DNA from: a virus
Taxonomy: Duplodnaviria > Caudoviricetes
Length of the DNA stretch: 64,000 bases
Reading direction: 5' to 3' (one strand)
Virus record (IMG/VR): IMGVR_UViG_2548877036_000005
Location: 1-64,000 of that record
Both the position numbers and the translations under genes were made by a program. A model generated the notes under the pieces. That model saw only the letters and a program-made list of their open reading frames with translations, was not told the origin of the DNA and searched no databases. Shown piece after piece: positions 337 through 34,396 of the stretch. Each line of letters opens with the position of its first letter. Position 1 is the first letter of the stretch.

Positions 337-1722
337 GTGGAAGCAGTGATCTACACACGAGTCTCCGACGATGATTCAGGCAGGTCAAGGTCCACCGCAG
401 ACCAAGAAAAAGACTGCCGCGAACACTGCGCGAAACAAGGCTGGACAGTCAAAGCCGTCCTCTGCGACGAGGGCGTAGGAGCCTCGCGCTACTCCCGAGG
501 AGAACGCGAAGCTTTCAAGCAACTCGAAACAATCCTCCAACGAGGCAATGTTCTGGTCTTCTGGGAAGCGTCACGATCCCAGCGTGACTTGGCTGCCTAC
601 GTCAAGCTCCGCGACCTCTCAGCACGAATAGGCGCCTACTGGTGCTACTCCGGAAAACTCTTTGACCTGACAAGGGGCGACGACAGGTTCGTCACCGGAC
701 TCGATGCACTGCTGTCAGAGCGTGAAGTTGATCAATTCCGGGAAAGGGTGGAGCGGGGTCGGCGTTCGGCGGCGGCATTAGGTAAGCCTGGTGCCGGTCC
801 AGCTCCGTGGGGATACAAGCCTCTGCGTGATGATAGAACCGGGGATCTGATCAATTGGGTGCCGGACCCTGAGGAAGCGCGTCTTGTTAGGGATGCCGCT
901 AGATCGGTTTTGGCGGGGGAAAGCACAAGGTCGGTGTTGAAGCGCATTAATGCTGGCGGTGTGTTGCATCGCCGTAGGCCGCAGTCGTTGACCGCTTTGA
1001 GGCGTGCGCTGATGAATCCCCAACTCGTTGGACTCCGCAAATATCAGGGCGAGATCGTCGGGGAGGGAACTTGGGAACCCATCCTCACACGCGAGGACCA
1101 CGAGAAACTTGTAGCCACTCTTACCGCGCCTTCCAGAAAGACTCATCACGGCACGGAACCGAAATGGCTGTTGACTGGAATAGCGGTGTGTGGGGTTTGT
1201 GGCGCCAGTATGGCCACGAAGGACAACAAAAGCAGCCGCATCTACATTTGTAGGGCTAACAGGGGTTGCGTGGGCAGGAATGTCGAGTACGCGGACGAGG
1301 TTGTCAAGGAAGCCGCTCTCTATGTTTTGGAAAGGCTTGATCCCGCAATTTTCGGGGAAGATGACGGCTCAACCCGCGAGGTCTTAGCGGAACTTGCGGA
1401 GTCGGAGTCATTGTTGGAGGAGTACCGGGCGCTGGCGGACGCGAGGGAGATTTCTCCGCAATCCTTTGCAAGGTTTGAGCAGAAACTTTTGTCACAGATC
1501 GAATCGGCCCGTAGTCGCCTCTCAGCGTCTCAAAGGATGTCTGCGGCACTCGCTATAGCGGGGCCGGATGCGCGCCGGTTCTGGGCCAGTATGGAGGCCA
1601 ATGGGACGCAGGGGCTCTTGGATAGGCGGGCCATCGTCAGGTGTTTCCGGGTGACCATCAAACCTGTGGGGCGTGGCCAAAAGCTGATTCCCGAAAGTAT
1701 CGGGGTCGAACTATTGGGTTAG
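337..1722 (+). CDS. Large serine integrase
   Basis: IYTRVS catalytic motif, recombinase domain (PWGY), Zn ribbon CGVCG...YICR...C, coiled coil. Confidence 0.95.
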   Translation: MEAVIYTRVSDDDSGRSRSTADQEKDCREHCAKQGWTVKAVLCDEGVGASRYSRGEREAFKQLETILQRGNVLVFWEASRSQRDLAAYVKLRDLSARIGAYWCYSGKLFDLTRGDDRFVTGLDALLSEREVDQFRERVERGRRSAAALGKPGAGPAPWGYKPLRDDRTGDLINWVPDPEEARLVRDAARSVLAGESTRSVLKRINAGGVLHRRRPQSLTALRRALMNPQLVGLRKYQGEIVGEGTWEPILTREDHEKLVATLTAPSRKTHHGTEPKWLLTGIAVCGVCGASMATKDNKSSRIYICRANRGCVGRNVEYADEVVKEAALYVLERLDPAIFGEDDGSTREVLAELAESESLLEEYRALADAREISPQSFARFEQKLLSQIESARSRLSASQRMSAALAIAGPDARRFWASMEANGTQGLLDRRAIVRCFRVTIKPVGRGQKLIPESIGVELLG

Positions 1723-3800: not shown

Positions 3801-3935
3801 GTGGTTGATCTTGCACCTTGTACTCATACCTTGTCCATACCTCTGTATTGATCTGTGCCGATAGTTTACGTGTCTGCGCCAGCTTGCCGCCCGCCAGATC
3901 GGCCCCGCTGAAGGCATTAATGCGCAGGTCATAGC

Positions 3936-4928: not shown

Positions 4929-5144
4929 GTGACTACTACGGAGAAGCCGAAATACAATTTTGTTGGTGTGGAACCGGATTATATGCATGCTGGTTATGAC
5001 GAGGTGGAGAAGGTTCCGTTGGTGTTCTTCGGGGTGAAGGATACGCGCGATATTTTTGTTATCCACCTGGATGTTGAGAACGCGGCCCGCATCGGCTGGG
5101 ATCTTGTTGATAACGCGGCTAGGGCTGCTGTTGAAGAGGGTTGA
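4929..5144 (+). CDS. Hypothetical protein
   Basis: GAGGAG RBS, GTG start. Confidence 0.6.
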   Translation: MTTTEKPKYNFVGVEPDYMHAGYDEVEKVPLVFFGVKDTRDIFVIHLDVENAARIGWDLVDNAARAAVEEG

Positions 5145-5963: not shown

Positions 5964-6412
5964 AGGGATTAGCCAGATGGTTCCGTTTCAACACGTTGGG
6001 ATTCGGCGGGGGATGCTGGTTCAATTTCTAATCCTGTAGTTGGAAGGCCCTGCAAGGGCCTCCTACGGGTTTCTAAACTTTATACCGGGCTGCTTTAGCG
6101 GCTGGTGTTGAATATAGTCTTGTGAACTTTTGAAAGCAACAATTCGGCTGTATGGGTATATCCCCGGCATTCGTGCACGGACCCCCTTTTGGGGAGGAGT
6201 AGACCTTTTTGTTGCGGCAGCCCACAGAAACGTATGAACCCCATTTTGGGGTTGTTTCTCGATGCCCAGGTGCGATTCCTGGGGTGGGCGCGAGCCGGTA
6301 GGGGTTGAGCGACCGTTTTTGGGGGACCTGACGGGATGTTTACTCCTTTCTGCCTGTCAGGGCGGTGTATAGGGCGGTTGCTCCCCCTATCGGCGGTAGT
6401 TGTTCCGGGGTA
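5964..6412 (+). ncRNA. Structured intergenic region including a D-armless tRNA-like element (6220-6290) and a 100-nt hairpin (6294-6394)
   Basis: GGGATTAG/CTAATCCT, AGGCCCT/AGGGCCT, GCCCAC/GTGGGC with CCAGG-TGCGATT-CCTGG T-arm, GCCGGTAGGGG/CCCCTATCGGC. Confidence 0.45.
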
Positions 6413-6428
6413 CTGATTGGAGGCTTGT

Positions 6429-6656
6429 GTGGCGTCTAGAAGTGTTCGGCAACGTAAAGAGCGGGCTCGCCGCGAGTGGGAGGCCCGTAAGGAGTTGGAT
6501 TGTCTGCCGGAGTTGGCGAGGTGGAGTGGGCTTTCTGCCCGTGAACAGGGTTTGGTTTCAGGCTGGTTGAACGGCTCCGGGTATCGGTGTGAGCCGAGGT
6601 TGGATGTGCCCCCGGATAGGGCGCGCAGGGTTGTCGCTAGAAAGGCGTGGTCATGA
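6429..6656 (+). CDS. Hypothetical protein
   Basis: GGAGG RBS, GTG; stop overlaps DUF2828 ATG. Confidence 0.5.
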   Translation: MASRSVRQRKERARREWEARKELDCLPELARWSGLSAREQGLVSGWLNGSGYRCEPRLDVPPDRARRVVARKAWS

Positions 6657-8047
6657 CGTTCATTTCTTCTCTACAGCAGAAGTTGAACTCTACGTATACC
6701 GAGAATGGTGCGTTGGCGGAGAAGTCGTCATTTGATCCGATTGTGGATTTCTTTGCGTTGGCTGGGGCGATGCGTGATACGCCGTCCGGGGCTGTGAAGT
6801 TGTTTGAGCAGGCTTTGTACGCTGATCAGCAGACCGCGTTGCGTACCTTGTTTTATCTGCGTGATGTGCGTGGTGGGCAGGGGGAACGTGAGGTGTTCCG
6901 GGCCTGCTGGCGCTGGTTGACGGCTTTCAGTCCGGAGTTGGCGGGGCGACTGTTGGCTTTCATTCCGGAGTATGGGCGTTGGGATGATGTGTGGTCGGCG
7001 GGGGTGACCCGGGAAGTGTTGGGGCTGGTTAGGGGCCAGCTCGCCTCCGATGTGTCGTCATGGCCAAAGGTGTCACTGTTGGGGAAGTGGCTTCCTTCTG
7101 AGAAGTCCGCCGAGTCCGATATTGCTCACCAGTTTATGCGGGGATTGGGTATGTCGCCCCGCCAGTATCGTCAGCGTTTGTCAGCGTTGCGTCGGCAGAT
7201 CGGACTGTTGGAGTCCCAGATGTCCACGAACGACTGGGACAACATCGAGTATGGAAAGCTGCCCTCACAGGCTCACCGTAAGCATGTGAAGGCGTTTTGG
7301 CGGCATTCGGAGCCCCGCTACCAGGAATATTTGGATGCGGTGGACCGGGGTGAGGCGAAGATCAACACCTCCACTTTGTACCCGTATGAGGTATATGACT
7401 TAGCGGAGCGTGGTGATCGGGCTGCGGACACGATGTGGGCGAATCTGCCGGATTACACGAACGGCACGGACGCTTTGGTGCTGGCGGATGTGTCTGGCTC
7501 GATGTGGGGTCGGCCTATATCGGTGTCAGTTTCTTTGGCTTTGTATTTCGCGGAGCGCAACACGGGAGCCTACAAGGGCTATTTCATGTGTTTGGAATCC
7601 GCGCCGCATTTGGTGAAGGTGTCGGGTAGGAATCTGCGAGAGCGGTTGGCTTCTATCCAGAACTCGACACGCTGGTGTGGTTCTACGAACCTTGAAGGCG
7701 CTTTCAACGCGATCCTTGCTGCGGGGGTCCAGTCGGGTGAAGTTCCGAAGGTTCTCTACATCGTCTCGGATATGCAGTTCGACCAGGCGGTGACTGGCGG
7801 CTCGGACACGACGTTCCGGAACGCTAAGGCGGCGTTCGCTGCGCATGGGTTGGAGTTGCCTCATGTGGTGTTTTGGAACGTGAATGCTCGCCAGACTCAG
7901 GTTCCGGCCACTATTCGTGATGGTGCGGTGACGTTGGTGTCGGGTTGTTCACCGACTGTGTTCGGCATGGCGGTGGAGGGTAAATCTCCGCGCGAGCTGG
8001 TCGATGAGGTTGTGAATGCGGAGCGGTATCAGGTGATCGAAGTATAG
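6653..8047 (+). CDS. DUF2828-family protein: helical N-terminal region plus C-terminal vWA/MIDAS domain (Ro60/TROVE-like architecture)
   Basis: TENGA, LRDVRGGQGER, PEYGRWDD, KWLPSE, LYPYE motifs; MIDAS DVSGSM...STN...SDMQFD; VFWNV. Confidence 0.85.
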   Translation: MTFISSLQQKLNSTYTENGALAEKSSFDPIVDFFALAGAMRDTPSGAVKLFEQALYADQQTALRTLFYLRDVRGGQGEREVFRACWRWLTAFSPELAGRLLAFIPEYGRWDDVWSAGVTREVLGLVRGQLASDVSSWPKVSLLGKWLPSEKSAESDIAHQFMRGLGMSPRQYRQRLSALRRQIGLLESQMSTNDWDNIEYGKLPSQAHRKHVKAFWRHSEPRYQEYLDAVDRGEAKINTSTLYPYEVYDLAERGDRAADTMWANLPDYTNGTDALVLADVSGSMWGRPISVSVSLALYFAERNTGAYKGYFMCLESAPHLVKVSGRNLRERLASIQNSTRWCGSTNLEGAFNAILAAGVQSGEVPKVLYIVSDMQFDQAVTGGSDTTFRNAKAAFAAHGLELPHVVFWNVNARQTQVPATIRDGAVTLVSGCSPTVFGMAVEGKSPRELVDEVVNAERYQVIEV

Positions 8048-8056
8048 ATATTTTTT

Positions 8057-8095
8057 TGGGCGTGTACAGCAATTACACTTGGATAAAGGCGCCCA
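8057..8095 (+). ncRNA. ACAGCAATT stem-loop unit 1
   Basis: TGGGCGT/GCGCCCA stem enclosing GT-ACAGCAATT...TGGATAAAG. Confidence 0.65.
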
Positions 8096-8105
8096 GTTGG
8101 TTTTG

Positions 8106-8213
8106 TGGACTCACACAGCAATTAAAATGCCACGGTTAGAGGTCGCGGGTTCGAATCCCGCCAATCCTTCGGGGTTGTAGCTCAGTTGGGTAGAGCGCTA
8201 TTAAATGAGTCCA
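8106..8213 (+). ncRNA. ACAGCAATT unit 2 containing a circularly permuted tRNA domain (Y RNA/YrlA-like topology)
   Basis: TGGACTCA/TGAGTCCA closing stem; T-arm GCGGG-TTCGAAT-CCCGC precedes an acceptor stem capped by cTTCGg, then TA and D-arm GCTC-AGTTGGGTA-GAGC. Confidence 0.85.
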
Positions 8214-8218
8214 GCTTT

Positions 8219-8266
8219 AGGGCACGTACAGCAATTTAAATCCTTCGCAATGGTTAAAGGTGCCCT
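8219..8266 (+). ncRNA. ACAGCAATT stem-loop unit 3
   Basis: AGGGCAC/GTGCCCT stem enclosing GT-ACAGCAATT...TGGTTAAAG. Confidence 0.65.
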
Positions 8267-8544
8267 GTTCATTCTTCCCGGTCGCGCCGGGATGTGCCCC
8301 TGATACGTGCTGACCTATCAGCCAGGGGAGCGTGGCCGCTACACACACATAGCGCTTAACCCACACCAGTAGATAGCCCGTGAAGAGTCTGGTGAGTTCT
8401 GCCGTAGGGGAGGTGTGTCCCCTGAATGCCCGGAGTACCGGATTTTTATGCGATGACCCTGCTCGACGGAGCAAGCCCATACGCATCGGCGTTTCCCTAG
8501 CGGCTGGGGATTCTGCACGAAAAGACTTTAGAGAGGAAATTGTA

Positions 8545-8739
8545 ATGCTTGGACCTAACGCCCTTAAGGCGGCGACGGATCTGGCCAGTGCCATGGGGGA
8601 TTTTCCGGACGACACGCGGGGCGAGGAAATTACACCGATAGTCCTAACCCAGATCGCTATCACGCTAGCCCAGATTTTAGATGTGCTGTCTGAGCATTTG
8701 TCTAAGGAATACGACGATTCCACGGCACCTAAGGATTAA
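8545..8739 (+). CDS. Hypothetical protein
   Basis: GAGAGG RBS before ATG 8545, preferred over GTG 8380. Confidence 0.55.
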   Translation: MLGPNALKAATDLASAMGDFPDDTRGEEITPIVLTQIAITLAQILDVLSEHLSKEYDDSTAPKD

Positions 8740-8742
8740 TTC

Positions 8743-9651
8743 TTGTCCGAGAAGGTAACCATCTCCGCGACTATCCCTGTTGCCCAGTACGGGAATATCC
8801 AGCCTACGTTTGAGACTGAGGGGGAGACGCATGAAGCGGCGATGGAGTTGGCGTTGCAGCGCATCAAAGATGTGTGGGACCGTACCGCGCCGAAGTCTTT
8901 GGAGGTCCGCAAGATAGATACCCCTCGCCTCATTTTCGGGGAGGAGTTGAGGTGCTGGGCTTCCGGTACACGTGTCACGTTCGATGAAGTTTCGCATGTG
9001 TATTCGACGGGCGATGGACGGAAATGGCTTTCAGGTTCCACGTTCGCGGGCCGATACAAGTCGGATTTCAATGCTCCTCTGGTTGCGGGGAAGATGGCCT
9101 CCAAGTATGAGGTGGATGCCGCCGAAATCATTGAAATGTGGGAGTTGAACAATAGTGCTTCACAAACGGTGGGTACGGCTGTGCATAAGGCGTTGCAGTT
9201 GCGTGGCGAGTATGGGGATTTGTCGCGTGCTGTGAAGGATGGCACGCTTGAGTCGGCGCTGTCTAAGAATGAGATTCTGCGACCTATTGTGGAGTCGTTT
9301 TTTGAGTCCCGTGAGCATGAAAATGCCGCCTATGAGGTGTTTGTGGCTGATCCGGTGCGGGCGCATTGCGGGTTTATTGACCGCCTTGTCATTGAGGATG
9401 ACGGGGTGTGGGTTGAGGACTACAAAACTAACGCTGATTTGTTGAAGAAAGAGACCATCAAGGTTCCGTTTAAGGATTTGGTTTCTAACGACAAGTTGGG
9501 GGCGTACTGGTTGCAGTTGTCCTTTTATTCTCGGATTCTGATTGCCCATGGCTACACGGTTAAGGGTTTACGTATTCATCATTGGGTGGATGGTGCCTGG
9601 AAGACTTATGAGCATGGGGTTATTGATCTTGATGCGGCTTTTGCGCGTTAG
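8743..9651 (+). CDS. PD-(D/E)XK exonuclease (RecE/Cas4-like)
   Basis: GTAVHKAL, GFIDRL, EDYKT, YWLQLSFY motifs. Confidence 0.85.
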   Translation: MSEKVTISATIPVAQYGNIQPTFETEGETHEAAMELALQRIKDVWDRTAPKSLEVRKIDTPRLIFGEELRCWASGTRVTFDEVSHVYSTGDGRKWLSGSTFAGRYKSDFNAPLVAGKMASKYEVDAAEIIEMWELNNSASQTVGTAVHKALQLRGEYGDLSRAVKDGTLESALSKNEILRPIVESFFESREHENAAYEVFVADPVRAHCGFIDRLVIEDDGVWVEDYKTNADLLKKETIKVPFKDLVSNDKLGAYWLQLSFYSRILIAHGYTVKGLRIHHWVDGAWKTYEHGVIDLDAAFAR

Positions 9652-11774: not shown

Positions 11775-12121
11775 GTGCGGAGTTCACTGCTAAAGCTTTG
11801 GAGTTGATGCAGGCCCGTTGTGGCGGTGACTGTGAAGTGATGTGGCCTGGTGTGTGTGGCGGTGGAGTGCTGCAATTCCACCATCGGAGGACTCGGGGCA
11901 TGGGTGGTACTAAGCGCCTGTCTTCTAAGCATGCGTCGAATGGGCTGGCTGCTTGTCTGTGGTGTCACGGGCATCTGGAGCACGGCGAGCGGTTAGAGGC
12001 CCGTGAATTCGGGTTTTTGGTGTCGCAGTCTGCGGAACCGGCGAAGGTTCCCGTGTTCTACCGATTTTCGCGGTGGGTTCTGTTATCCGATGATGGGACG
12101 GTCGAGTCTTGGCTTTCTTGA
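11771..12121 (+). CDS. HNH-like endonuclease
   Basis: RCGG.CE...HHRR.RGMGG...SN...CLWCH. Confidence 0.75.
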   Translation: MSAEFTAKALELMQARCGGDCEVMWPGVCGGGVLQFHHRRTRGMGGTKRLSSKHASNGLAACLWCHGHLEHGERLEAREFGFLVSQSAEPAKVPVFYRFSRWVLLSDDGTVESWLS

Positions 12122-16770: not shown

Positions 16771-16979
16771 GTTTCGTGGCGTGTTCACCCCGCCACCACC
16801 ACTGCTCACCATCACATTCACGCCTCGTCTCTGATTACAGGCTGGAGCGTGAACGTCAAATGGTGGCTTTGGAGTCTGTTACTGGCGGTTATGTGGGTGA
16901 TTACCGGTTTTGGCGGGATCAGGGCGGGCGTCTGATCGATTTCCGCGACTGGCTGAAATTTAGCAAGAGGACAGTATGA
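16767..16979 (+). CDS. Hypothetical protein
   Basis: GTGA/ATGA coupling. Confidence 0.55.
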   Translation: MSFVACSPRHHHCSPSHSRLVSDYRLERERQMVALESVTGGYVGDYRFWRDQGGRLIDFRDWLKFSKRTV

Positions 16980-17890
16980 CGATTTTGACCTGCATGAGGG
17001 GATACGTTGCGAGTGGGAAGTCGTCCCGTGCCCGTGAAATTGCAGAGGAGACGGGCGCGGTTGTCGTCAATAGGGATTTGTTGCGTCTTCAGCTTCTCGG
17101 CACCTACTGGACCGGCGACCAGGACGATGAGTGGCGGGTGACTGTAGCTGAGGAAGCCCAGGTGTTGGCGTTGATGCAGGCCGATATCCCGGTTGTTGTG
17201 GACGCTACTCACCTGATGCCGTCGTATCTACGGAAGTGGGCTCGCTGGGCTACCCGTTACGGCTGGGACTTCGCCGTCGAGGACGTGAAGACCCCGATGG
17301 ATGTGTGTTTGGAGCGGTTGCGGCGCCGGAACCTCGAATCGGATCGGATCATTGAGGCTTCTGTCCTGTTTAATCAGGCTAAGCGGTACCCGATTAATCG
17401 TTGGCCGGTGATTGAGAAGCGGAAATTTAATCCGGTACCAGTGGAGCGCGACAATGCTCTACCGAAGGCGGTCATTGTTGATATAGATGGCACCTTGGCC
17501 GAAAAATGCGACCGGAGCCCTTATGACTACACCAGGGTAGGCGAAGACCGTTTACACTGGGACGTGACCTGGCTGGTGGATTTACTGGCACTGGATGACT
17601 ACCACGTGCTCATTGTTTCAGGCCGGGATGATACATGCCGCGTAGATACCATAAATTGGCTGGATGACAACGGCGTCCCTTACGACCACCTGTTCATGCG
17701 GGACACCGTGGCGGATGTTGACGTGTTCGGCGGAAAACTACCGGATTACGAAGTCAAGTATCGACTGTTCAATTGGCATATCCGAAATAAATGGTGTGTC
17801 CATTATGTGATTGATGATCGCCGCCAGGTTATCGATATGTGGCGAGGCATCGGTCTACGGGTACTTGATGTAGCTGGAAATAACTTTTAG
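16976..17890 (+). CDS. Polynucleotide 5'-kinase/3'-phosphatase (T4 PseT/Pnkp-like)
   Basis: GYVASGKS P-loop, NRD..R, HAD DIDGT, SGR, DDRRQV. Confidence 0.92.
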   Translation: MTILTCMRGYVASGKSSRAREIAEETGAVVVNRDLLRLQLLGTYWTGDQDDEWRVTVAEEAQVLALMQADIPVVVDATHLMPSYLRKWARWATRYGWDFAVEDVKTPMDVCLERLRRRNLESDRIIEASVLFNQAKRYPINRWPVIEKRKFNPVPVERDNALPKAVIVDIDGTLAEKCDRSPYDYTRVGEDRLHWDVTWLVDLLALDDYHVLIVSGRDDTCRVDTINWLDDNGVPYDHLFMRDTVADVDVFGGKLPDYEVKYRLFNWHIRNKWCVHYVIDDRRQVIDMWRGIGLRVLDVAGNNF

Positions 17891-21580: not shown

Positions 21581-22867
21581 ATGACTAAGTTTGATGTACC
21601 GAAGAACGCTAATTATGTGGCCACGATTGTGGCTGTTCCTGAGCCGGTGGATTTGCCTGGCTTGGATAATCTTGTGGGGATTCCGCAGTTCGGGTACCAG
21701 GCGTTGACTACACGCGGTATCAGTAAGGGCGACCTTCGGGTGTTGTTTACGGCAGAAACTCAATTGTCTGCCGAGTATGTGTACGAAAATTCTTTGTCGC
21801 GGGACAAAGAGCTGAATAAGTCTGATGAGACTGGCTATATCGAGAGGCATCGCCGCATCCGTGCTATTAAGCTGCGGAAACACCAGTCAGACGCTTTGTT
21901 GATGCCGTTGGAGTCTCTAGCCTACACAGGCTATGACGTGTCCACGTTGAAGCCGGGGGATGTGTTCGACACCCTGAATGGGTTTGAGATTTGCCGTAAG
22001 TATGAGTTGCCGAAGCAGGCCCAGCCGAAGGCTTCGGGGCCGAAGATACGGCAGCGGGTGGATCAAAAGCTGTTCCCGATGCATCTGGACACTGAACATC
22101 TGTTCCGGAACTGGGACGTGTTCCGTGAGTCAAAGTGGGCTGTGATCACGCAGAAGCTTCACGGAACTAGCATCCGTATCGGTCGTGTTCCGGCGTTGCG
22201 GGATAAGGGCTGGCTGGAGCGTGTGGTGGTCAACAAGTGGCTGCGCATCCCTACTGCTGATACCGCATATGAGGATGTTGCGGGCTCACGTCGGGTGATT
22301 AAGGGCCGCGACGATAACAACCACTACTACGAGTCTGATATTTGGGCTGAGTATGCGAAGCGTCTTGAGGGGATGATCCCGGAGAACTTTGTCGTGTACG
22401 GGGAGTTGATCGGCTGGGAGTCCAAGGATAAGCCGATTCAGCGGGGCTACACCTATGACCTGGAGCCTGGTGAGCGCGAGTTGTACGTGTACCGGGTGGC
22501 GATGGTGAACGGTCAGGGTGTGATCGCGGATTTGTCGTGGGATGGCGTGGAGCAGTTCTGCGCCTCTATCGGCTTGAAGACAGTTCCCGTTCTCTGCCGC
22601 CCATGTATCGACACTGGTTACGGCACAGATGACCGCGATATGACCGCGCTGTACGCGTCAAGCTATCTCAATATTCAGTTCGCTGGCGGGCCGTTCTGGG
22701 AGCAAACACCCGTGCCGCTGTCCGACCCTAAGACTGTGGATGAAGGTATCTGTGTCCGCATTGAGGGGCGGGTTCCACAAATATTCAAGGCGAAGTCTCC
22801 TCTGTTCCTGGAGCATGAAACTAAGTCGTTGGATGCCGGTGAGCTGGATTTGGAGAGTGCGGCTTAG
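21581..22867 (+). CDS. RNA ligase (Rnl2/DRB0094-like) with N-terminal OB-like domain
   Basis: Nucleotidyltransferase motifs QKLHGTS, YGELIG, DEGICVR, FKAKS. Confidence 0.85.
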
Positions 22868-23835
22868 TGGGGCTTGACGAAGCGTTAGCGAATATTGATA
22901 AAAGCTTCGGTCGTGGCGCTGTCATGCGGTTGGGGGACGAGAATCGGACCCCTATCGGAGTGTTCTCCACGGGTTCGCTGGCGTTGGATTCAGCGCTTGG
23001 TATAGGTGGGGTTCCTCGGGGCCGGATCGTTGAGATTTACGGCCCCGAGTCGTCCGGTAAGACAACGGTGGCGTTGCAGATCGTGGCTAACGCTCAACGT
23101 GAGGGCGGTACGGCGGCGTTTATTGATGCTGAGCATGCGTTGGACCCCGAGTATGCGGCGAACCTTGGCGTGGATGTGGGGCAGCTGTTGGTGTCTCAGC
23201 CGGATACGGGTGAGCAGGCTCTTGAGATTGCGGACATGCTGATCCGGTCCGGGGATATCCGGGTGTTGGTGATTGATTCTGTGGCCGCGCTGGTGCCTCG
23301 CGCCGAGATTGAGGGCGAGATGGGTGACGCCCATGTGGGCCTGCATGCGCGGTTGATGTCTCAGGCTATGCGGAAGATCACGGGTCCGGCGAAGAACAAT
23401 GACACGACGGTGATCATGATCAACCAGTTGCGTCACAAGATTGGTGTGATGTTTGGTTCGCCGGAGACAACTACTGGCGGCATGGCGTTGAAGTTTTATG
23501 CGTCGGTTCGTTTGGATGTGCGGCGCATTGAAACGTTGAAGCAGGGCACAGAGGCGGTCGGTAATCGCACGAAGGTGAAGGTTGTCAAGAACAAGTTGGC
23601 GCCTCCTTTCAAGCTTGCAGAGTTCGATATCCAGTACGGCAAGGGTGTGTCCCGGCTGGGGGAGCTGGTCGATCTCGGGGTTGAGCACAAGATTGTGGAT
23701 AAGTCGGGTTCGTGGTTCAAGTATGAGGGCACCCAGTTGGGGCAGGGTAAGGCTGGCGCGATGTCTGCCCTGGACGCTTCACCGGAGTTGGCTTCTGAGA
23801 TTGAGTTGAAGATCCGCGCAAAGTTGGGGATTTAA
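22867..23835 (+). CDS. recA: RecA recombinase (phage copy, no intein)
   Basis: [39 protein letters not shown]. Confidence 0.97.
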
Positions 23836-31563: not shown

Positions 31564-31637
31564 GCTGCCTTAGCTCAATCTGGTAGAGCAGCGGCTTTGT
31601 AACCCGCAGGTTGGCAGTTCAATTCTGCCAGGCAGCT
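31564..31637 (+). tRNA. tRNA-Thr(TGT)
   Basis: GCTGCCT/AGGCAGC acceptor, D-arm, TT-TGT-AA loop, GGCAG-TTCAATT-CTGCC; C31-C39 mismatch; no CCA. Confidence 0.9.
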
Positions 31638-31640
31638 CAA

Positions 31641-31746
31641 TGTGGGGTGAGGATCAGTGGGAGGGCCAGGGAAAGCTAGCTAGTACCTGGTGGCCGTGAT
31701 CGGCGCATAGGGCGCAGGCAGCGGGTTTAATTCCCGCCGCCCCGCA
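31641..31746 (+). ncRNA. tRNA-like element (acceptor and T-arm, no canonical D/anticodon arm)
   Basis: TGTGGGGTG/CGCCCCGCA, GCGGG-TTTAATT-CCCGC, internal GATCA/TGATC and CCAGG/CCTGG. Confidence 0.6.
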
Positions 31747-31751
31747 GGTTT

Positions 31752-31823
31752 AGCGGTGTAGAGCAGTGGTAGCTTGTCGGGCTCATAACCCGAAGGTCGC
31801 ATGTTCGACTCATGCCACCGCTA
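31752..31823 (+). tRNA. tRNA-Met(CAT), initiator-like
   Basis: AGCGGTG/CACCGCT, GAGC/GCTT D-stem, TCGGG-CTCATAA-CCCGA, GCATG-TTCGACT-CATGC. Confidence 0.92.
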
Positions 31824-31971
31824 CGTAGGGAAATGGTGACGCCCCCGGTTTGATTCCGCGAATGGGTTGCCGGTGTCAGCCTTCTACCTGAGTGAAGGTC
31901 GAGCCACCTATGTTCCGGTGACTATTCAAGCCTTTTGGTTATGGACTCCCGGTGCAACAGTTCAGGTGGCC

Positions 31972-32045
31972 GCAAGGGTGTAGTTTCAATCAAAATACTG
32001 GGAGTCCAACCCCGGAGATGCAGGACGATCCTGCTGCCCGCGCCA
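31972..32045 (+). pseudogene. Degenerate tRNA-Gly(TCC)-like element ending in CCA
   Basis: GGGTG-TA-GTTT, CTGGG..TCC..CCCGG, GCAGG-ACGAT-CCTGC, TGCCCGC-G-CCA. Confidence 0.45.
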
Positions 32046-32085
32046 ATAAAAATGATATGTGCGTGATGCACGGAAAGAAGGCGTG

Positions 32086-32364
32086 ATGCCTAAAGAGTAT
32101 ATTGGTAGGGAACCACAAGAGCGTGGCTCTGTTAGTGTGTCGTGGGGCCGGGACCATTGTATGGTGCAGTTGTCTGTGGCCGGTCCAATCGGGTGGAGAA
32201 GCGACCGCTTGCCGTCGCCCGATCCCAAGGGTGTGCAGGTGTGTGGCTATTCACCTGATGAAGATTTGGATTGGCATTTTAGCGTTAAGCACCGTAATGA
32301 GATCAACGATTTGATCCGTGTGCTTCGTAAGGCTCGTGATCAGGCTTTTGGCCGGGACGAGTAA
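32086..32364 (+). CDS. Hypothetical protein
   Basis: GAAGG RBS; MPKE...V.WGRD...R.EINDLIRVLRKARDQAFGRDE. Confidence 0.65.
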   Translation: MPKEYIGREPQERGSVSVSWGRDHCMVQLSVAGPIGWRSDRLPSPDPKGVQVCGYSPDEDLDWHFSVKHRNEINDLIRVLRKARDQAFGRDE

Positions 32365-32603
32365 ATAGACTTCGGGTTAGGCTACCCGCGATCCTCCTTT
32401 GGGTCGTGCCCACTCCTTTGGGGGCAACAAAAGGCCCCAGTAACGGTTGTATCGCCGTGCCCGTCTGGCCAGTTAGGGTGAATGATCCGCTGTTGTCATC
32501 GTTAGGGACATAAGCGGGCCGACGCTGACTAAATATCGGCCACCTAAAATGTGCCCAGGTGGGGTGCCTTCCCTGTTGAAATATCCTACCTAAGGAATAA
32601 GTT

Positions 32604-32807
32604 ATGCAGCGTATCGGCATTGAGCGCTACAAGCGGGAGTTACACGATAGCCCGGACGGATGGCCCTATTCGGGGTTGATTGAGGGTAGTCGAGATGATG
32701 GTTCCCGTTGGATTATGTGGCTTGATGAGCAGGGCAGCCCCGCGTTGTTCTACGCGAACCGTGATGAGTACGGTGGCGTGGTTGGTGACCCGGTGGCTTT
32801 GCAATAA
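32604..32807 (+). CDS. Hypothetical protein
   Basis: TAAGGA RBS. Confidence 0.6.
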   Translation: MQRIGIERYKRELHDSPDGWPYSGLIEGSRDDGSRWIMWLDEQGSPALFYANRDEYGGVVGDPVALQ

Positions 32808-32811
32808 ATCT

Positions 32812-33650
32812 GCCCACCTGCATGCAAGGTGGAGCTGTAAATCCAGACGTGCATAGAAGCTGCACGGTCATGAAAGAGCACATACCGGCTGCTGGTGTCG
32901 GGTGTGTGTGCGCCTAGCGGATGGTGCGAAGATGTCCGCAGACGGCCACGCATGTTTTATCTGACGTGGTTGGGGTGACACCGCTTTTAGGTGGTGAAGA
33001 AACCCGTGAGGTGTAAACGTGTCTGCCCTCCGCTGTGATAGCCGACAGCAGAGCGGGCGTGAGTGGAGTTTCCGACAGGGCGCTCATGCTTTCACCTTGT
33101 TAAGGTTGGACACCTTCGGGTAGGTGGAGAGGTTAACTCTGCGAAGCTAGGTGTCGTGCGGGAATAGGCCCCCCGTATTTTCTACCCAAAACCTGCTAGC
33201 CGGGATAGAAGTGCTAGCCCCATATTCCGAATGGGTTACGGAGGTAGTGATACCACCACTGTGGAACCCCAGAACCGTCCCTGTAGCCCTCTTTTTTTTA
33301 GAGGGCAGATCAAACGGCTGGGTAGTTGCGCTGTGTCTATCCGTCTGGGGTTCTACGGCCCTGGGGTGATAGATGTGTGGCGAATGAGCTAATTCGTCAC
33401 AGCTTGGCAAGCTAATCCTCCCAGCCCCCCCGTCCAGGGTTCTGCACTGGCTGGGTTTTAGGTTGCCCGTGATCCTAAACGGGCCGACTTGGCTCCCCGT
33501 TACTTGTTGCCCGGCATTCCCTTCTGTCGTCAACCCGAAGGATTAACTTGTGGGGATTGGGTGTCCCCGTACGCGACCAGGCTCTCGCGTCTGTTCAGTA
33601 GGGTGAACGCACGGAAACCGCCCAATCTTAAACGGCAAACGGTCATGTGC
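32812..33650 (+). ncRNA. Candidate large structured ncRNA (about 850 nt)
   Basis: No credible ORF; about 20 consecutive stems, including 15-bp 33259-33273/33344-33358 with G-U pairs on + strand. Confidence 0.5.
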
Positions 33651-33659
33651 CCGCAATCT

Positions 33660-33740
33660 TCACCTGTGCGCTCAAATGGTTAGAGCGGCTAGCGGTACCC
33701 AATCCGGCAGTGTGTCTCGGTTCAATTCCGGGCAGGTGAT
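33660..33740 (+). tRNA. Atypical tRNA with elongated anticodon arm (identity unclear)
   Basis: TCACCTG/CAGGTGA, GCTC-AAATGGTTA-GAGC, CTCGG-TTCAATT-CCGGG; loop TACCCAAT. Confidence 0.65.
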
Positions 33741-33899
33741 CAGGGGATGCAACCTTTTCCAGAGAATGCTGCATCATCGCGTGGGTGCTGGAAACACCGC
33801 GAGGCGACGGAATGTAGGACTCACCCACCCGGCCTAAAAAAAGGGTGAACGGGAGGTAGATATTTCTACGATCACGCTGGGTCCGTTAAGCCCATCTCA

Positions 33900-33958
33900 T
33901 AGACGACTCTGGTGGGGCCGGATACAGGTTGCGGAGGTTCGATTCCTTCATCGTCTAC
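33900..33958 (+). ncRNA. Mini tRNA-like element
   Basis: TAGACGA/TCGTCTA with GGAGG-TTCGATT-CCTTC T-arm and one internal hairpin. Confidence 0.55.
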
Positions 33959-33960
33959 AA

Positions 33961-34088
33961 GGCATGGTTGGTGGTTCGAATCCGCCTGCGGTTATTGCCC
34001 TCTATGCATGGAGGGAGCTGGGTCTTAGTTCGCGCGAAAGCCACCCGGTGCGGTAATACGTATACGTCTCAATTGGTAGAGCGGTGCC
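33961..34088 (+). ncRNA. Second circularly permuted tRNA-like element with extended acceptor arm
   Basis: GGCAT/GTGCC closing stem; T-arm GGTGG-TTCGAAT-CCGCC first, D-arm CTC-AATTGGTA-GAG last. Confidence 0.65.
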
Positions 34089-34170
34089 CCTCTACTTCCA
34101 CCTTTCCCAGTCCCCTAACTCGCTGCGGATGCGCCAAGGATTGTGTTGGCGCTGAAAATGGTGGACCAAT

Positions 34171-34243
34171 GTCTGGGTAGCTCAATTGGTAGAGCGGTGG
34201 TCTCCAAAGCCACTGGTTGCAGGTTCAAGTCCTGTCCCATTCG
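34171..34243 (+). tRNA. tRNA-Trp(CCA)
   Basis: GTGGT-CTCCAAA-GCCAC, canonical D and T arms; two mismatches in acceptor stem. Confidence 0.85.
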
Positions 34244-34396
34244 CGGTTGCGCGGGGCAGGCGTTGGGCGGAACCGACCGTTCACCCCGCTCGCGTCCCGG
34301 CGCGGTTACGGCAGCACGTAAGGATCTGCCGATCCGGGCATAACTTTCTAGCTATTTAGCCCAGCTTGGCGTATTAAACCATGTGCAAAGTGAAAC

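Follow-up and report, generated by a model that had tools for sequence, protein, structure and literature searches.

The DNA considered here, hereafter the window, comprises the initial 64 kb of a provirus record of 78.7 kb (IMGVR_UViG_2548877036_000005). Near its left end it carries a gene of the DUF2828/DUF7788 family, followed on the same strand by an array of three short, stem-closed units (Table 1). In each unit a helix of 7-8 bp with an R-G-A/G-C : G-U/C-C-Y core joins the two ends, ACAGCAA(UU) lies 1-2 nt inside the helix, and the 3' side is A-rich; this arrangement is termed the handle, the units handle RNAs, and the enclosed remainder cargo. Ro60 and its Y RNAs form a classic ribonucleoprotein (RNP) whose core function is still unclear, and the known bacterial and phage examples of Ro60 rest on TROVE-annotated proteins together with YrlA RNAs. 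The present locus points to a second, sequence-unrelated family with a predicted Ro60 fold, with its own sharply defined predicted RNA docking module and with swappable tRNA-like cargo.

Table 1. Coordinates of the gene, the RNA units and other features of the window
Feature	Position	Strand	Details
DUF2828/DUF7788 protein gene	6653-8047	+	464 aa; stop TAG 8045-8047
Handle RNA unit 1	8057-8095	+	7-bp stem TGGGCGT/GCGCCCA; ACAGCAAUU at 8066-8074; 16-nt cargo
Handle RNA unit 2	8106-8213	+	8-bp stem TGGACTCA/TGAGTCCA; ACAGCAAUU at 8115-8123; permuted tRNA-like cargo
tRNA-like module in unit 2	8137-8201	+	Partial match to RF02553 (Rfam YrlA)
Handle RNA unit 3	8219-8266	+	7-bp stem AGGGCAC/GTGCCCT; ACAGCAAUU at 8228-8236; 25-nt cargo
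GC-rich hairpin after array	8276-8292	+	7-bp stem; z -0.35 (fold of 8268-8310); without U-tract
Serine integrase	337-1722		Left end of provirus
PNKP gene	16976-17890	+	Genomic context, at most a putative role in the system; Pfam HAD_PNKP 4.5e-40, AAA_33 2e-19; PHROG 505 polynucleotide kinase 9e-92
RNA ligase gene	21581-22867	+	Genomic context, at most a putative role in the system; Pfam RNA_ligase 3.6e-14; PHROG 968 RNA ligase 2.3e-114
RecA gene	22867-23835		Directly after RNA ligase

Unit 1 begins 10 nt past the stop codon, and all three units lie on the strand of the gene. Such a set of stem-closed units had been put forward in the original prediction, and both the sequence and RNAfold agree with it, the three closing stems being the outer helices of the minimum free energy structures. 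Because unit 1 follows the stop codon after a gap of only 9 nt, the RNAs probably come from the same transcript as the gene, from which processing would release them. The word ACAGCAATT has three matches in the window, at 8066, 8115 and 8228, where 0.46 are expected, and at least three were obtained in 2 of 100 shuffles. Furthermore, a covariance model (R1) built from 78 units of other loci, without any window sequence, recovered exactly the three units when the window was scanned on both strands with filters off. Unit 3 was matched at 8218-8267 (34.9 bits, E 2.5e-5), unit 1 at 8056-8096 (25.7 bits, E 0.0028) and unit 2 at 8105-8214 (25.3 bits, E 0.0034), while the next-best match had an E-value of 4.1. 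The helix core of unit 2, GGAC/GUCC, is the commoner form of the family, and the handle matches no family in Rfam.

Two further motifs belong to the original prediction. The word YGGWTARAGG does stand at 8080, 8133 and 8251 within the units, and its five matches in the window exceed expectation (0.77; five in 0 of 100 shuffles), but it is not a family feature, as window unit 2 is the only one of 102 anchored units to carry it. The A-rich, TAAA-like stretch before the 3' strand is present in all three window units and in 60 of 102 units elsewhere. Units 1 and 3, whose cargo is very short (16 and 25 nt), share YGGWTARAGG with unit 2 and may be local truncated derivatives of it. The remaining two matches of this word, at 11990 and 13692, lie inside open reading frames outside the array and are probably due to chance. 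At 8291-8299, beyond the hairpin that follows the array, ATGTGCCCC could serve unit 3 as another 3' partner of its 5' strand; the alternative closing helix would then have 8 bp and extend over 8220-8299, and the family consensus and R1 favour 8219-8266.

A predicted Ro60 fold in the DUF2828 family

The N-terminus of the window protein, MTFISS, agrees with the consensus of its homologs. Pfam assigns the protein to DUF2828 (1.6e-32) and DUF7788 (3.5e-28), and PHROG 850, named 'RNA-binding protein', matches it at 2.1e-140. An AlphaFold2 model made from 35 homologs (pLDDT 85.8, pTM 0.77) predicts a ring of helical repeats, HEAT-like and TROVE-like, followed by a C-terminal vWA domain. When this model was compared with the PDB by Foldseek, all 12 matches at E<=1e-3 were Ro60/TROVE structures, including Deinococcus Rsr, Xenopus Ro and, as the top match (E 8.6e-7), the Ro60 of Thermus phage phiLo; the Ro60-like character suggested in the original prediction is thereby upheld. 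The MIDAS of vWA domains, an adhesion site that depends on metal ions, has the motif DxSxS...T...D, and the residues of this type in the window protein (D279, S281, S283, T345 and D373) are invariant across the 35 aligned homologs. The protein is accordingly best described, on its model, as a predicted Ro60 fold, its MIDAS complete, in a separate sequence family, DUF2828/DUF7788.

This family is widespread among phages. A tblastn search found it in 710 of 50,697 complete phage records (~1.4%), with hosts that include Escherichia, Mycobacterium, Salmonella, Vibrio, Listeria, Staphylococcus and Campylobacter, and DUF2828 genes are also present in FelixO1-like phages. The closest relatives, at 64% identity, belong to cluster L mycobacteriophages, whose homologs are annotated in GenBank as 'Ro-like RNA binding protein'; one of these phages, LeBron, also encodes an RNA ligase and a PNK. 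The ESM Atlas returned solely DUF2828 clusters of viruses and bacteria and was uninformative on eukaryotes.

Handle RNAs beside DUF2828 genes

Motifs were counted in 90 non-redundant homolog loci, from which L008 and L031 had been excluded as duplicates of the window and of L001. The gene strand carried 261 copies of ACAGCAA and the opposite strand 22; 104 decoy permutations averaged 47. For 192 of the 261 copies a closing stem of 7 bp or more stops 0-3 nt short of the motif, compared with 26% for decoys, so that ACAGCAA stems do stand near DUF2828 homologs, as the original prediction had supposed. An earlier unit finder with a stem minimum of 6 bp was unspecific, assigning a 'stem' to 17 of the 22 opposite-strand motifs, and was tightened afterwards. 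The resulting consensus has R-G-A-C at positions -8 to -5 on the 5' strand and G-U-C-Y-W-G on the 3' strand.

Covariation was assessed without circularity by anchoring units on RGAC..ACAGCAA and on the first downstream GTCYWG, so that pairing itself was not selected. Among 102 distinct units obtained in this way, 95 pair at both variable positions, compared with a mean of 28.4 and a maximum of 45 when partners were shuffled, and the R:Y pair is A-U in 67 units and G-C in 35, with zero exceptions. A second data set, alignment A2, from which R1 was built, was obtained from 96 short units that were thinned to 80 by k-mer similarity and then to 78, two units (L004:5326-5376 and L037:3081-3137) being dropped by judgement as chance-like stems, one of them in coding sequence. 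Double changes occur in all seven helix pairs of A2 and 95.8% of the pairs are formed, counts that lean towards structure because the units were chosen for having a stem. The single-stranded 7-mer ACAGCAA is invariant in 78 of 78 aligned units. The view that varying stems and a constant motif mark an RNA family of the protein-bound type, which had been drawn from three units only, is thus borne out by covariation and by recurrence beside homologs on the gene strand.

The strand preference is absolute in the scan of 89 homolog loci with R1, which gave 139 matches at E<=0.01 in 70 loci, all 139 on the gene strand and 0 on the opposite one, although the default filters used there under-detect long units. 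Protein identity across the phages that conserve the handle ranges from 23 to 64%. The units lie upstream of the gene in phages of Enterococcus, Listeria and Campylobacter and downstream of it in actinophages, and they are also found near homologs in FelixO1-like phages and in many metagenomic viruses. Their number varies as well. The cluster L phage Krypton555, whose homolog is gp56, has, in an unannotated stretch of 373 nt, a three-unit array consisting of a hairpin, a tRNA-like unit and a hairpin, with a clear terminator behind it; the same layout of three units is present in a prophage of Mycolicibacterium sphagni; a metagenome-assembled genome of Acidimicrobiales (L003) has one unit; and at least five occur on a contig assigned to Saccharibacteria by binning. 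At the level of DNA, the array of the window resembles phage records only in the tRNA-like piece and in a weak 61-nt match in Krypton555 and Whirlwind. The pairing of DUF2828 with handle RNAs is met again in many phages and has the appearance of a so far undescribed branch of the Ro60/Y-RNA particle.

Some of these loci show additional features. In Listeria phage LP-064, three handle units lie just upstream of the DUF2828 gene, and an RtcB-like 'tRNA splicing ligase' and a metal-dependent phosphohydrolase are encoded 0.6-1.3 kb downstream of it (L089, 5346-6503), the RtcB-like ligase being 1.3 kb away. In L003, a gene for the bacterial signal recognition particle (SRP) RNA (3806-3904) lies ~300 nt downstream of the single unit, which suggests that the DUF2828 locus there may belong to the host chromosome and not to an obvious prophage. 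Shigella phage Sf14 (L090) has four handle units in the gaps between annotated tRNA genes. An unannotated unit at 4960-5079 of this locus has tRNA-like cargo, of which Rfam reports a marginal tRNA at 4962-5036 (30.0 bits, cut-off 29); handle units can therefore be overlooked or taken for weak tRNAs, as in Sf14.

The association was also examined in the reverse direction, from RNA to protein. Contigs were drawn from a viral collection by a 15-nt handle pattern alone, the protein being ignored; from the 80 listed of at least 120 stretches, 78 contigs were tested, L096 being left out, as was L165, which is the same contig as L119. A unit confirmed by R1 was present in 27 of the 78 listed contigs, and 21 of these 27 encode DUF2828, compared with 1 of the 51 listed contigs without a confirmed unit (Fisher p = 1e-12). 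Among the listed records at least 90% complete, DUF2828 was encoded in 5 of 5 with confirmed units and in 0 of 7 without. The raw tallies of DUF2828 in the pattern-picked contigs were weaker, at 16 of 49 and 6 of 29 (3 of 9 and 2 of 3 for near-complete records); all seven near-complete negatives lack a confirmed unit and are likely to be chance matches to the 15-mer.

In unit 2 the cargo is a tRNA body in circularly permuted form, with no acceptor end left free; units 1 and 3 contain short loops only. According to the original prediction, a strong match to a described Rfam family would have removed the novelty of the units. The match obtained, to RF02553, reaches 47.2 bits against a gathering score of 69 (E 2.8e-9), involves model positions 23-86 of 114, and spans the T arm, a UUCG-capped acceptor-like hairpin and the D arm, that is, cargo of unit 2 and not handle. 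The layout of T arm, capped acceptor hairpin and D arm is shared by 26 tRNA-like units, in which compensatory changes affect 11 of the 14 pairs predicted, and most of these units have an anticodon-arm-like hairpin before GAGGU, which is weak in window unit 2. Together, layout and hairpin suggest that the cargo corresponds to a tRNA whose opening lies between its D and anticodon arms. In short units elsewhere, 7-nt loops are enriched (22 of 57, compared with a mean of 2.5 and a maximum of 7 in shuffles), and 12 of these units have U at loop position 2 together with a purine at position 6, where shuffles gave 0.23. Mycobacteriophages Sparky and Farewell, which are outside the listed DUF2828 matches, contain an unannotated 66-nt stretch that shares 85% identity with unit 2 in its tRNA-like core and could be another tRNA-like or Y-like RNA.

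Known systems and alternative explanations

The system most similar in organization is that of Ro60 (Rsr) with YrlA and YrlB. In the passages of Chen et al. 2014 (PMC4201824) used for comparison, genomes were gathered by TROVE annotation, and YrlA is described from 254 bacteria and 22 phages as lying next to the Ro60 gene and sharing its strand. That work defines YrlA by its adjacency to Ro60, by a 5' GNCGAAN0-1G motif (the proposed Rsr contact) and by a tRNA-like domain, and states that the Ro60 fold docks the terminal stem of partner RNAs. As far as these passages go, both systems have a ring-plus-vWA fold and small RNA genes beside the protein gene on the same strand, and the window units, like YrlA, are encoded within 4 kb of a Ro60-type gene. 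Both also have a terminal stem with a conserved motif on its 5' side, and in each, one RNA carries the module of T arm, capped acceptor and D arm and others do not. They differ in that the window protein belongs to DUF2828/DUF7788 and not to TROVE, and in that a handle of RGAC:GUCY with ACAGCAA replaces the YrlA motif. On reading the sequence, GNCGAAN0-1G is absent from the 5' parts of units 1-3 and (U)GGRC...ACAGCAAUU stands in its place, which agrees with the reservation in the original prediction that the canonical Ro-binding helix of Y RNA could not be seen. Handle-RNA arrays moreover reach at least five units with swappable cargo, and the resemblance of unit 2 to YrlA stays below the Rfam cut-off and within the cargo. 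RF02553 had no match at the gathering score in 14 related loci, and no YrlA above cut-off was found in the three host genomes of L002, L003 and L006, so the comparison was made against the motif of Chen et al. 2014.

Two phage proteins are also relevant. The Ro60 of Thermus phage phiLo (PMC12135203; PDB 9KOP, 9L5Y) is, like the window protein, a phage-encoded Ro60-fold protein with adjacent partner RNAs, which here are candidates. In the part of that report consulted, its Yrl1 and Yrl2 are defined by CGAA, whereas the handle has ACAGCAA, and the window protein has no sequence-level similarity to phiLo Ro60. The PhageMaP preprint (10.1101/2024.10.10.617714), in the portion compared, assigns a Ro60-like fold to Bas63 gp130, which acts against Ppl defence, and offers as a guess only that 'some tRNA genes are possibly Y RNAs'; that portion describes no handle RNA, and gp130 is a candidate member of DUF2828.

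The closest entities in print to handle RNAs are YrlA and the Class I RNAs of dictyostelid amoebae, and the latter share the motif. To our knowledge, the function of Class I RNAs has gone unexplained for 20 years. According to the sections of Kjellin et al. 2021 (PMC7919456) that were compared, they are eukaryotic RNAs of ~60 nt (42-65) from clustered genes, with a Dictyostelium upstream sequence element (DUSE) promoter ~60 nt upstream and an RNA recognition motif (RRM) protein, Rnp1A/CIBP, as binder; they are reported from Dictyostelia only, and their 11-nt motif has near-invariant T, C, C, A and A at positions 3, 6, 9, 10 and 11. The search pattern quoted from the Fragrep paper (PMC5054030) is GTTGRC-CTT-ACAGCAA ... 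GTCAAC-TG. As described there, Class I and handle RNAs have in common a short end-joining stem, an unpaired motif just inside its 5' strand and a variable remainder, and the published pattern contains the identical ACAGCAA as well as GAC/GUC at the inner end of the stem. The R1 consensus, ..gCUAACAGCAA, fits all five near-invariant positions, and each window unit fits four of the five, with G, A and G at position 3. The window units differ in being prophage-borne behind a coding gene, with no DUSE setting, and unit 2 is 108 nt long. The sections of Kjellin et al. 2021 compared do not link Class I RNAs to Ro60, DUF2828 or tRNA-like cargo, and no literature connecting Class I RNA, Y RNA and Dictyostelium was found. 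Papers on DUF2828 by name concern plants and a tardigrade and contain no handle RNA, nor was a published description of a handle RNA found by a search that lay outside subscription journals and supplements.

Taken together, these results make it probable, in our judgement, that the locus encodes a divergent Ro60-type RNP of a temperate actinobacterial phage, formed by a Ro60-fold ring and three Y-RNA-like partner RNAs encoded downstream. It is important to note that several observations weigh against it. The structural similarity to Ro60 is modest (TM ~0.5, root-mean-square deviation ~5 Å, by Foldseek and VIA-align), Pfam TROVE gives no match at E<=1, and phmmer and a 35-sequence profile returned only noise from PDB sequences, the solved Ro60 proteins, including that of phiLo, remaining unmatched. 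LeBron gp53, a cluster L homolog, is moderately toxic when overexpressed, and as it is so alone, the protein may act without its RNAs. Single-sequence folding z-scores are modest (-2.0, -2.3 and -1.4 for units 1, 2 and 3), and the R1 E-values of units 1 and 2 are only ~0.003. Bare ACAGCAA is at chance across the window (10 found, 8.4 expected), so that the signal consists of clustering and stems. Units 1 and 3 have the core GGGC/GCCC and not the commoner GGAC/GUCC, a paired double change that also occurs in L015, L016, L019 and L022-L026. A stricter covariation test at three positions found 56 of 119 units fully complementary (shuffled mean 14.3); it proved too strict because the helix varies in length beyond GAC, and the two-pair test was used instead. 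Finally, 19 of 89 homolog loci, mostly those of the most distant homologs, have no R1 match within ~2.5 kb, and 6 of the 27 contigs with a confirmed unit lack DUF2828, all of them incomplete (9, 17, 20, 48, 54 and 80%).

These gaps would suit a different explanation, in which the handle is read by another factor, such as a processing nuclease, a host RNA chaperone or the phage PNKP/ligase, and DUF2828 is linked to it only through a neighbourhood of tRNA and RNA-repair genes. The units dispersed between tRNA genes, at distances from the DUF2828 gene of up to 1-2 kb, in Sf14 and several metagenomic phages make another reader conceivable, as does the co-occurrence of PNKP, RNA ligase or RtcB with a protein whose binding of the handle is only predicted. 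We nevertheless consider this explanation fairly unlikely, given the tight same-strand adjacency in very different lineages with the side of the gene varying, the 5 of 5 against 0 of 7 near-complete listed records, the lack of any tRNA gene within 20 kb of the array in the provirus, and the docking of a terminal stem by the Ro60 fold as reported in the passages of Chen et al. 2014 (PMC4201824).

A more conservative possibility is that the locus is a diverged copy of the described Ro60 (Rsr)-YrlA system, with unit 2 as YrlA, units 1 and 3 as YrlB-like RNAs and nothing new. The RF02553 match of unit 2, its place beside a Ro60-fold gene on the same strand, as in the compared passages of Chen et al. 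2014, and the existing 'Ro-like' annotation all favour it. Cluster L may possibly be among the 22 phages of that study, whose list lies outside those passages. However, the match is below the gathering score and leaves the Ro-binding ends of YrlA uncovered, the 14 related loci give no YrlA match at that score, RGAC and ACAGCAA occupy the place of the YrlA motif, and neither Pfam TROVE nor a solved Ro60 is matched by the protein in sequence, while the genomes of Chen et al. 2014 were, on the passages seen, gathered by TROVE; we therefore hold a mere diverged YrlA system to be quite improbable. It is more improbable still, to the point of being nearly negligible, that the units are non-functional debris of tRNA genes, integration scars, or terminator or repeat hairpins. 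The tRNA-derived appearance of unit 2, the weak Rfam tRNA in the Sf14 unit and the modest z-scores would fit debris, but a handle that is conserved and covaries across phages of such low protein identity, with an invariant 7-mer and matches on the gene strand exclusively, would not, and the integrase and prophage end are ~6 kb away from the array.

Possible function and provirus context

For the Ro60-type RNP favoured here, the handle would be the docking site of the DUF2828 protein, by analogy with Ro60, whose outer surface binds the conserved stem of Y RNA. The cargo would then expose shapes resembling tRNA to further factors. Candidates for these are defence proteins of the host, such as nucleases that target tRNA, for which the cargo would serve as a decoy, as well as exonucleases of the host and the PNKP/RNA-ligase repair pair that the phage itself encodes. 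Overall, the ring probably docks the handle and displays tRNA-like cargo as part of the dealings of the phage with tRNA damage and defence. A much broader proposal, which we put forward as doubtful but worth stating, is that DUF2828 and ACAGCAA-handle RNAs represent an ancient second Ro60/Y-RNA lineage spanning phages, other viruses, bacteria and eukaryotes. Class I RNAs would be its eukaryotic members, bound by a DUF2828-type protein, and the handle a universal adaptor that loads mimics of tRNAs or anticodon arms as decoys or sensors beside PNKP/RNA-ligase repair.

Several uses follow from these data. GAC:GUC with ACAGCAA constitutes a simple and testable candidate binding code, and by means of the handle, small RNAs could be annotated that at present lack annotation or can pass for weak tRNAs. 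The system further supplies a candidate mechanism for the reported anti-defence activity (the countering of Ppl in Bas63) and, for the Class I RNAs of Dictyostelium, a concrete proposal as to their protein partner. Because it sits with a PNKP/RNA-ligase pair in a prophage, cluster L mycobacteriophages in M. smegmatis are a practical laboratory model.

The provirus itself begins with the integrase and an early/recombination block comprising a PD-(D/E)XK exonuclease, a single-strand annealing protein and DnaB. Its PNKP, with a kinase domain and a HAD phosphatase domain, forms with the RNA ligase an RNA repair pair of T4 type on the strand of the Ro60-like gene, and no RtcB was found in the provirus. 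Four RNA runs with the same species labels gave 0 reads on 6300-8700, the strains concerned evidently lacking the prophage. A promoter and terminator scan of 6300-8800 yielded nothing useful near the array on the + strand and did not call the GC-rich hairpin after it, at which the transcript might stop; the terminator of Krypton555 occupies the corresponding place. The next likely gene starts with an ATG at 8545, and the 277 nt that precede it behind unit 3 (8268-8544) are non-coding, have no match in Rfam and can form several hairpins rich in GC, with a weak CCGG...CCGG-U5 element around 8428-8448. Three tRNA genes (Thr-UGU, Met-CAU and Trp-CCA) are located mid-record, at 31564-34244, distant from the array.

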